Part shown: positions 3,001-6,000 of the stretch, piece by piece
Layout: each line of letters opens with the position of its first letter
How positions within the stretch are numbered: the first letter of the stretch is position 1
Source of the DNA: a virus
Lineage: Duplodnaviria; Heunggongvirae; Uroviricota; Caudoviricetes
IMG/VR virus record: IMGVR_UViG_647533159_000005
Length of the DNA stretch: 11,837 nt
Reading direction: 5' to 3' (one strand)
Made by a program: the position numbers

Positions 3001-6000
3001 GACGGAACGCGAAGCGCGTAACCGTTGCCCGTCCGGTTGTGTCGCTGTATTCGCCGCCCGTATTCGTCAGGAGGTGCGCCATGATTAACCTGTCACTTAC
3101 CGACCTTAACCGCATTCAGTTTCGTGAGAAATTCACCGGGCAGCTACTGGTCAATGTGGATAAAGGTCGCGTGGTGTGTAATTACCACCTGCCAGATGAA
3201 GCAATTGTCGCAACAAGGGAATCATTACAGGAACTCGCAGAACGTGCCGGAATGATTAACGCGAATATTCAGGGGGTGAGACATGTGCAATAACACCCGT
3301 CCGGACGCAGCTGCCGAAGCTATCAGAACGCTGATGCACGCGCTGATTGATATTTCATGCACGGCAGCAACCGCAGAAAAACACATTACCAGAGAGCCGG
3401 AATATACAGGGGCGATAATCCCGCATTCGCTGGCTTACGCACAGCTTACCGCTGATATGGCGCTGAATGAGGCTAAAGCCATCCTGATTGCTGATTGTGA
3501 AAATGGCGGGGGCGATTATGCGAAATAAACATGATATTGAAGACCTGGCATTTGAAGCCCTGCACTCTGCGAAAAAAATCAGGGAAGTCGTCAATATGTG
3601 GATGAACAGCCTTAGCACCGATAAATCCGATAGCAGAGAAGAAATTCTTATTTCTTTGTTGTTAGACCTGGCAAATACACAGGTTTCTCTGACATCTGAT
3701 ATTGAGCTCGCCGCTAAAAAGCTGCCTCTGGAGTAAAAAAACATGAAAAAGAAAAATTCTGGCTTTACTGCCAGCGGCCCCGCTCGGCCTGAAATCCGCC
3801 CCGACGATATTTTCAAAGATAAATACGGCGGACGAATAACGATAAAAACCGTTGACGATTTTCGTGTGACTTATATCCGCGAAGGTTATGCGCATCCCTG
3901 CGTGTCGTCTCATATGCGCTTTGAGAGTGAATTCACCCTGGTAAGCAAAGCACCACCAGCGAACTTAAGCGACATCGACAGAATCATGCGCGTTACAGGT
4001 ATGGAACGCATTAAGGCAGTACGTGAAATTATTCGTGAACGGGGAAAGGCAAAATGAAACTGGCACCGAACGTAAAACTGTTACCGAAAGATAAAGGCGA
4101 GGATGCAGTGATTTTTGCGGGGGATGACGCATACAGCCATGCAGAGCATTACATGCAGGGCGGAGAAGCCAGAAAGCGCGGCGACAAAATACCACCTGTT
4201 TATCTCGGACGGCGTGACCTGGGTAATCTGGAAAACCTGCGTATTGTGGATGAGGGTCGGTCACGCGCCATCGTCAGACGTGCCGGAAAACTGGATGACA
4301 AACTGGCGCTACAGATTGAAACCCTGCTGGCAGTGGCTGGTGTTAAAGAAGCCTGTTTTTGTGACGAGAACGGCGATTTACTGGAGGACTGGACACCACA
4401 GCTTGCCCGACTGAAAGACGAATACGAGCGCGGGGAAAGTCTGGTGTTGCCCTTAAAGAAAAAAGCCACAGGAAGCTATAGCGATGATGAATTAAAGCCC
4501 CGCGTTGAAAGCCGCGCCGATGGTGTTTTCTGGGTAACGCCAAAAGTTGACAAGCAGTCAGGCGAAATTATCCGGCCTGAGACGTGGTTATGTTCCCCGC
4601 TTGAACTACTGGGAACGGGGACAATCGGTAAAGAGCATTACCGCGTGATGCGCTGGAAAAAGCCACACAATTTCACGAATACAGCACCGGAAAGGCGCAC
4701 GCAGACGCGTTAAAAGATGCCTGGACAGAAAATCACGGGGCGGCGGGTCGTGAATGGGTTAAATGGCTGGCAGACCACCAGCAGGAGGCAAAGGACACGG
4801 TAAGGTCATGCCGTGAACGGTGGCGCAACCTGATACCGGAGAGCTACGGCGAGCAGGTACACCGCGTGGGTGAGCGTTTCGCCATACTGGAGGCCGCGCT
4901 TGTGCTTTCCGGTCATGTTACTGGCTGGGATGAGCAGGAATGCCGCGATGCCATTCAGCATAATTTTAATGCCTGGGTGAAGGAATTCGGCACGGGTAAC
5001 AGGGAGTTTAAACAGATGGTTGAACAGGCAGAGGCTTTTTTAGCGTCGTTCGGATTCAGCAGATACCTTCCGTGGCCCAACACCGACGAGCGTGATTTAC
5101 CGATTAAAGAGCTTGCCGGATACAGAAAGGGGAGTATCAGAAACGAAGATGACGAGTTTCGTTTTTACACGTTCCCGCATGTATTTGAGGGTGAGATAGC
5201 ACAGGGATTTAATCCGTCTCACTTTGCCCGCGCGTTGAGTGCTGCCGGAATGCTGGAAGCGGGTAACGATCGCCGTTACAAGAAAAAGGCGCTCGGCAGG
5301 ATTGGGGGGAAGCAGCATGTTTTTTACGTGCTGATGTTCCAGCCAGAAAGCGAAGAAGATTAATTTTTTCTCGCGTGTAGGGTGAAAATTTTGCGGGTTA
5401 TGCGGGTTATTTCTGTGGATAAATCAGTATCCATATGATTATTAAAGGAATGACAGGAAAATCGTAACCCGCAAAATACCAAAAATAACCCGCAAAACGG
5501 CAGTTATAACCCGCAAAAGTGCGATTATAACCCGCAGAATTTCACAGTATAGGGTGTAAACAAGCGTAACTATCAACGTTAAAACCGGAGAACAGACAGC
5601 ATGACAGCACAGATAGCGGCTTACGGGCGGCTGGTGGCTGACCCGCAGTTAAAGACCACCAGCAAAGGGACACAAATGGCGATGGCGAGTATGGCGGTTC
5701 CCCTGCCGTGCAACCAGGCCGATGACGGAACGGCGACGATGTGGTTATCCGTCCTAGCGTTTGGCAGACAGGCCGACGCACTGGCAAAGCACCACAAAGG
5801 CGAACTCGTGAGCGTGGCGGGTAACATGCAGGTAAGCCAGTGGACAGGCCAGAACGGCGAAACGCGGCAGGGCTGGCAGGTCATCGCAGACAGCGTAATC
5901 AGTGCGCGAACGGCGCGACCGGGCGGCAAAAAAGGTCAACAGGGCCAGGCTACTGACGCACTGAACAGGGCAAAACAACAGGCGGGAAATGATGACCCGT

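Follow-up and report, generated by a model that had tools for sequence, protein, structure and literature searches.

Does the pair of overlapping reading frames at 4054-5363 of this viral DNA represent a replication gene that has lost one base, a gene decoded by ribosomal frameshifting, or the remains of a larger gene? We analysed the whole stretch of 11,837 nt, referred to here as the window. The original prediction was that an ORF at 4054-4713 and an open frame at 4632-5363, overlapping by about 80 nt and lying across GGAAAAAG at 4655-4662, are two parts of a single gene. All of these coordinates were confirmed, and the overlap spans 4632-4713 (82 nt). Going from frame 1 to frame 3 amounts formally to a -1 shift, as had been stated. 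Frame 3 becomes open at 4632, right after a TAA at 4629-4631, and ends at the stop codon at 5361-5363; its opening at 4632 is accidental. As had also been described, the downstream part lacks an ATG: none was found near the beginning of the frame (from 4632), and its earliest start codon is a GTG at 4866. Neither window fragment (4054-4713 or 4632-5363) gave a Pfam match.

We searched 5,426 complete E. coli genomes by megablast with positions 3700-5500, and 504 genomes matched. In the best matches, about 1,760 nt of query aligned as two pieces extending over about 2,575 nt of subject, where a single 'DUF927 domain-containing protein' is annotated. In E. coli ETEC6335 the intact gene is 2124 nt long (707 aa) and lies 3' of a DUF4222 gene, with the same stop/start overlap as at 4054-4057 of the window, where the DUF4222 stop overlaps the rep start (ATGA); this overlap is found in all intact relatives. 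The 2124-nt single gene is also present in MB06102, tcmA_3, STEC313 and A36, which with ETEC6335 makes five E. coli strains, and the match to the intact gene was contiguous and in one piece in 60 of 60 genomes sampled from the 378 that matched. The homologs carry one gene, and two separate conserved genes with a start near 4866, the arrangement named beforehand as contrary to a disrupted gene, were not found. The two ORFs match nt 1-612 and nt 1412-2124 of the intact 2124-nt genes, confirming that both derive from a single disrupted replication gene and that their configuration is not due to chance.

The break was located by aligning the 1310-nt window gene with that of ETEC6335 (pairwise BLAST). 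Nucleotides 1-612 of the window gene aligned without gaps to nt 1-612 (99.5% identity), and nt 598-1310 aligned to nt 1412-2124 (97.8% identity), so that the two alignments share 15 nt of the window and 814 bp are missing from the window gene. The parts of the disrupted gene are as follows:

4054..4713, plus strand: 5' remnant of the island rep gene (DUF927 helicase/initiator), 219 aa, ATG start, frame 1.
4654..4665, plus strand: deletion junction with the sole remaining copy of TGGAAAAAGCCA, which holds the A5 tract; 814 bp are absent here.
4656..5363, plus strand: 3' remnant of rep, frame 3, with native codons E473-D707 and the native stop.

The genes of ETEC6335, tcmA_3 and A36 each contain the 12-mer TGGAAAAAGCCA exactly twice, at nt 601-612 and, 814 nt further on, at nt 1415-1426; when the preceding CG(C/A) is included, 14 of 15 positions are alike between the copies. 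At the window junction, the 12-mer is preceded by the left-type CGC and followed by the right-type CACAAT, which places the crossover inside the 12-mer; a microhomology of at least 12 nt would occur at a random junction with a chance of about 4^-12. The break had been assigned to the A5-containing sequence, and the junction (4654-4665) does include the A5 tract. In the intact genes, the left copy reads TGG-AAA-AAG-CCA (W-K-K-P, frame 0) and the right copy reads (A)TG-GAA-AAA-GCC-A ((M)-E-K-A-T). Because 814 = 3x271+1 and the copies are read in different frames, the 3' part now lies in the -1 frame. The ORF at 4054-4713 consists of 204 native codons, after which HNFTNTAPERRTQTR is encoded out of frame (15 codons) up to a premature TAA, and the 3' remnant is identical to the ETEC6335 protein at 232 of 235 residues. 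These results make us highly confident that rep is a pseudogene, that it arose when a 2124-nt gene lost 814 bp in a single deletion between direct repeats of 12 bp, and that the island is left without a functional initiator.

The same data bear on the proposal that the locus is a gene of about 436 aa from which one base was lost in the A5 homopolymer, by a real 1-nt deletion or a sequencing error. Errors in homopolymers are common on some sequencing platforms, and the addition of one A at the A5 tract did give a single ORF of 436 aa, as anticipated. However, this repair did not restore full-length homology: of the 707 residues, the repaired ORF covered 1-202 and 474-707 only, and 271 residues with the ATPase core were still absent. 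The intact homologs are 707 aa long, and the window is 814 bp (271 codons plus 1 nt) short of them, not one base. Moreover, both repeat copies of the intact genes have exactly five A's, which indicates that the A5 tract has lost no base, and two assemblies show the same junction. Since the intact homologs read through both repeat copies unshifted, a sequencing error in the homopolymer was excluded as the cause, and we give the loss of a single base almost no probability.

Programmed -1 ribosomal frameshifting at G_AAA_AAG, which would fuse both frames to yield a functional protein, had been mentioned as a less likely alternative. The shift required is -1, the zero-frame TGG AAA AAG agrees with the dnaX-type A_AAA_AAG at 6 of 7 positions, and A_AAG is by itself prone to shifting in E. 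coli. As in dnaX, AAA AAG codons stand in the zero frame and a second ORF lies in the -1 frame; in contrast to dnaX, the first base of the heptamer is G rather than A, so that only the A-site slip is fully canonical, a downstream stem-loop is lacking, homologs do not conserve the arrangement, and the overlap is a product of the deletion. The 68 nt downstream (4663-4730) had a folding energy of -10.4 kcal/mol, with a z score of -0.29 against shuffled sequences, and no RNA family was returned when the whole window was scanned against Rfam at gathering thresholds. The site is the deletion scar, the 12-mer is read twice unshifted in the intact homologs, and the two-frame arrangement was found in no other genome searched (5 relatives, 60 sampled genomes, and 5,426 genomes for the junction). 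Low-level spontaneous slippage at A_AAG is conceivable, but the fused product would be without the ATPase core. Lacking conservation and downstream RNA structure, programmed slippage was excluded as the cause of the two-frame arrangement, and a functional frameshift here is extremely improbable.

We then considered which sequences carry the junction. An exact-protein look-up of the 219-aa product in a large assembly collection returned two contigs. One was the 5.16-Mb chromosome OU349838.1 (GCA_910664785.1), listed as E. coli B185, O148:H10 (PMC10463865), in which the window is 100% identical. The other was a 9.7-kb Logan contig from run SRR024255, with 0 mismatches to OU349838.1 over 8,084 nt including the junction. 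This identity over 8 kb indicates that the two assemblies are probably of the same strain, and they may share read sets. The junction was absent from the 5,426 complete E. coli genomes (201-nt junction query), from GTDB representative genomes (48-mer and 27-mer across it) and from JGI metagenome contigs (27-mer), and it appears to be private to strain B185. An assembly artefact, in which the 814 bp are really present and were collapsed between the 12-nt repeats, would fit a junction seen only in OU349838.1 and in one assembly possibly of the same strain. Against it, a 12-nt repeat is far below assembler k-mers and read lengths and should offer no basis for collapse, and the complete chromosome and the Logan contig, which were separately produced, show the identical junction. 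We therefore judge an artefact very unlikely, although a little less so than the loss of a single base.

For the repeat-mediated deletion, the scar suggests that slipped-strand misalignment during replication, or another form of RecA-independent short-repeat recombination, would be the most likely route; such a route would eliminate one repeat copy together with the whole interval between the copies. The nearest intact genes are mosaic, with the left part closest to tcmA_3 (99.8%) and the right part to MB06102 (about 98%), and the left repeat copy is degraded in two relatives, MB06102 and STEC313. That the actual ancestor of the B185 allele had the repeat is thus presumed from its relatives. 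Both halves of rep are otherwise without disabling changes, which points to a recent deletion event.

The identity of the gene was assessed with the intact protein. It matched Pfam PF06048 (DUF927) over residues 167-434 with 159 bits (gathering cut-off, 22.6). It also matched the staphylococcal 'Pathogenicity island protein' of PDB 8TCH over residues 213-600 (E 1.9e-15), the SCCmec 'Active helicase' of PDB 5DGK over residues 302-519 (E 0.0016) and, weakly, NCBIfam SCCmec Cch1. The match to phrog_1139 'DNA primase' (E 3e-176) begins at profile position 243 of 895; beyond this PHROG match, no primase domain was recognisable in the intact E. coli protein. On the basis of these matches the gene is predicted to encode the island's initiator-helicase (Rep), a homolog of SaPI Rep and SCCmec Cch.

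These alignments also decide whether the short form might be ancestral and the 814 bp elsewhere an insertion with a 12-nt target-site duplication. An 814-bp segment between 12-nt direct repeats does superficially resemble a mobile insertion. Yet the segment encodes the conserved DUF927/ATPase core in frame with both flanks, and the 8TCH and DUF927 alignments of the intact protein run uninterrupted over the deletion endpoints. Across about 370 E. coli genomes, O157:H7 among them, no part of the gene is as widely conserved as the central core, and the degradation of the repeat in some intact alleles would be unexpected for a fresh target duplication. Because this conserved core is contiguous in all 60 sampled genomes, the insertion scenario was excluded, and its probability is negligible. 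A deletion from the 2124-nt gene is the reading that we retain.

The deletion removed residues about 203-473 (271 residues). Both the Walker A (STAGKTT, 350-356) and Walker B (LLPLDE, 393-398) motifs of the intact protein lie in the deleted segment, as does most of the DUF927 domain. The intact ortholog scores above the gathering threshold of PF06048 and the window fragments do not, and the window gene has no P-loop ATPase core as defined by Walker A and B. Judged by its domains, the window gene is a remnant of a DUF927 family member and not a functional member. The native start would now give 204 native residues and a 15-residue nonsense tail. The C-terminal region, which in SaPI Reps carries the origin-binding domain, is out of frame and without a start codon. 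In SaPI Reps, an N-terminal domain of unknown function and an ATPase domain are combined with a winged-helix domain at the C-terminus, to which iterons just 3' of rep are bound; replication in vivo is abolished by mutation of Walker A or by truncation of the C-terminal domain (PMC9371898).

In E. coli ETEC4090, the orthologous gene carries an independent 833-nt internal deletion in the same core, with a 2-nt microhomology, and is annotated 'frameshifted' by RefSeq. ETEC4090 was rejected as a carrier of the B185 deletion, because its 833-nt deletion differs.

Around the rep remnants, the window holds the following features:

1..1242, plus strand: integrase, intact, 413 aa (Pfam Phage_integrase, Arm-DNA-bind_3 and Phage_int_M).
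1774..1980, plus strand: alpA regulator, intact (Pfam PF05930, E 4.5e-8).
Between alpA and the DUF4222 gene: Icd-like region and several small ORFs.
3743..4057, plus strand: DUF4222 gene (Pfam PF13973, E 7.6e-18).
5389..5539, no strand assigned: putative replication origin, apparently intact, with two TGCGGGTTA iterons, an AT-rich spacer at 5410-5464 and four TAACCCGCA(A/G)AA iterons.
5601..6023, plus strand: ssb, intact (Pfam PF00436, E 3.1e-16).
6060-6584: ProQ/FinO-like gene.
6581-6868: PerC gene.
8056-8658: Nu1-type small terminase gene, the sole packaging gene in the 11.8-kb window.
9188-9988: K88/F4-type fimbrial subunit gene.
11529-11837: second PerC gene.

A direct and inverted repeat search showed that the TAACCCGCA(A/G)AA iterons are in the opposite orientation to TGCGGGTTA, with a spacing of 21 nt, and the island iterons at the putative origin include TAACCCGCAAAA. 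An iteron origin just 3' of rep is the layout known for E. coli PICI and SaPI origins (PMC6092414; PMC9371898). A tRNA-Pro gene and yejM lie directly upstream of the island in a relative, and yejM-type genes lie upstream on the source contig. In the related island of MB06102, the distance from int to the last PerC gene is about 13.2 kb. No capsid or lysis genes were found in the 11.8-kb window. The island has an integrase and AlpA at one end, is integrated at a specific site, fits the PICI size range of about 10-15 kb and carries no full structural or lysis set; of the rep-ori module, the origin architecture is present at 5389-5539 and rep is disrupted. Its gene content and location identify the island as a Gram-negative PICI-type satellite beside tRNA-Pro/yejM.

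A plasmid can replicate from the rep-ori segment of EcCICFT073, an E. coli PICI, but not when rep is deleted from it (PMC6092414). Since int, alpA, the origin and ssb are intact in the window and the initiator-helicase is missing, the B185 island would keep excision and is probably unable to replicate autonomously after induction. The earlier suggestion that the island may be replication-defective probably holds, given the loss of the ATPase core and a C-terminal region without a start codon. A related Rep from another element of the same genome could be supplied in trans. We predict that the yejM/tRNA-Pro PICI of B185, thanks to its intact int and alpA, is still able to excise but not to amplify itself, and that its transfer would for this reason be much reduced unless Rep comes in trans.

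These findings also affect annotation: the appropriate label is a rep (DUF927) pseudogene with an internal deletion of 814 bp, and neither a 'frameshifted' gene that one base would mend nor two hypothetical proteins. More generally, where two ORFs overlap beside a homopolymer, the cause can be a large deletion between repeats, which only a comparison with intact homologs reveals. A broader scenario would be that loss of the Rep ATPase core is recurrent and selected, locking PICIs in the chromosome while their cargo (two PerC genes and the K88/F4-type fimbrial subunit) is kept, and that the N-terminal fragment and the iteron origin act as a decoy or interfere with related islands or helper phages. 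We consider this scenario improbable; the sole hint of recurrent rep loss is the 833-nt deletion of ETEC4090, and two cases (B185 and ETEC4090) do not establish recurrent selection.

Compared with known systems, the locus is a typical example of a pseudogene made by deletion between repeats, and both its gene family and its class of mobile element are known. Deletions between short direct repeats, whether by slipped-strand misalignment or RecA-independent illegitimate recombination, have a classic case in the lacI deletions of E. coli. The B185 deletion shares their defining features, with endpoints in exact 12-nt repeat copies, one copy kept and the interval lost; it does not differ in kind, and here the mechanism is read from the scar alone. 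With the Gram-negative PICIs (Fillol-Salom et al. 2018, PMC6092414), the island shares a tRNA-adjacent integrase, AlpA, unidirectional genes, a rep-ori-ssb module, PerC cargo and a Nu1-type small terminase, together with the lack of capsid and lysis genes in the window. Unlike them, the B185 copy is without a functional rep, and rep is needed for replicon function in PMC6092414. The intact orthologs share DUF927, the Walker A and B motifs and 8TCH/5DGK homology with SaPI Rep (8TCH), the pri-rep of EcCICFT073 and SCCmec Cch (5DGK), although the similarity of the intact E. coli protein to the staphylococcal Rep and Cch proteins is distant (E 1.9e-15 and 0.0016). In contrast to this family, the window copy has lost the family-defining domain and has no Pfam DUF927 match, whereas the surrounding arrangement, with an iteron origin immediately 3' of the gene in an int-alpA-...-rep-ori-ssb island, is that of the PICI Rep/Pri-Rep systems.

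Loss of the ATPase core from the rep gene appears to have occurred more than once. An orthologous rep gene with an internal deletion was located in E. coli ETEC4090 (NZ_CP122620.1), where the host element is a capsid-encoding island:

L002 (the ETEC4090 locus) 3326-4613: orthologous rep gene with internal deletion

The deletion comprises 833 nt, corresponding to nt 731-1561 when numbered on the ETEC4085 allele of 2121 nt. Microhomology at its junction is limited to 2 nt, and RefSeq labels the gene 'frameshifted'. This deletion is an event independent of the one in the window's rep gene, and ETEC4090 represents a second case of the same core being lost.

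The repeat search revealed a putative, apparently intact PICI-type replication origin directly 3' of the broken rep gene:

5389-5539: putative PICI-type replication origin

This region contained two copies of the iteron TGCGGGTTA and four inverted TAACCCGCA(A/G)AA iterons at 21-nt spacing, as well as an AT-rich spacer (5410-5464). Between the origin and ssb, the ETEC6335 and MB06102 islands carry a stretch of approximately 380 nt that contains a 351-nt hypothetical gene; it is missing from the window (at 5549-5572) and likewise from tcmA_3. This origin-adjacent difference is an indel polymorphism.

The MB06102 and ETEC6335 islands were collinear with the window apart from the late/cargo region at 7132-9464, which includes a Nu1-type small terminase gene and is inverted and rearranged relative to both. 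The island cargo included:

6581-6868 and 11529-11837: two PerC-family regulator paralogs
9188-9988: orphan K88/F4-type fimbrial subunit gene

No usher or chaperone gene accompanying the fimbrial subunit was found in the window.

The gene call in the Icd-like region concerns coordinates on both strands:

1985-3088, plus strand: stretch in which the source annotation calls a 362-aa gene
2518-2697, minus strand: stretch opposite this call

Only the last ~60 residues of the 362-aa call matched anything, namely Icd-like/repressor PHROGs. In relatives, the homologous DNA is annotated with two genes, one short and Icd-like, the other an antisense YlcI/YnfO gene. The 362-aa ORF is probably an over-extended gene call.

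We compared the intact rep gene (L001 4319-6442) with 378 E. coli genomes. The rep gene is a mosaic across E. coli lineages: the central core (nt ~400-1800) retained ~90% identity over hundreds of genomes, including O157:H7. Both ends of the gene, ~350-430 nt at the 5' end and ~320 nt at the 3' end, were exchanged between lineages. Among these genomes, some islands carried a RepA-family helicase behind the same DUF4222 gene.
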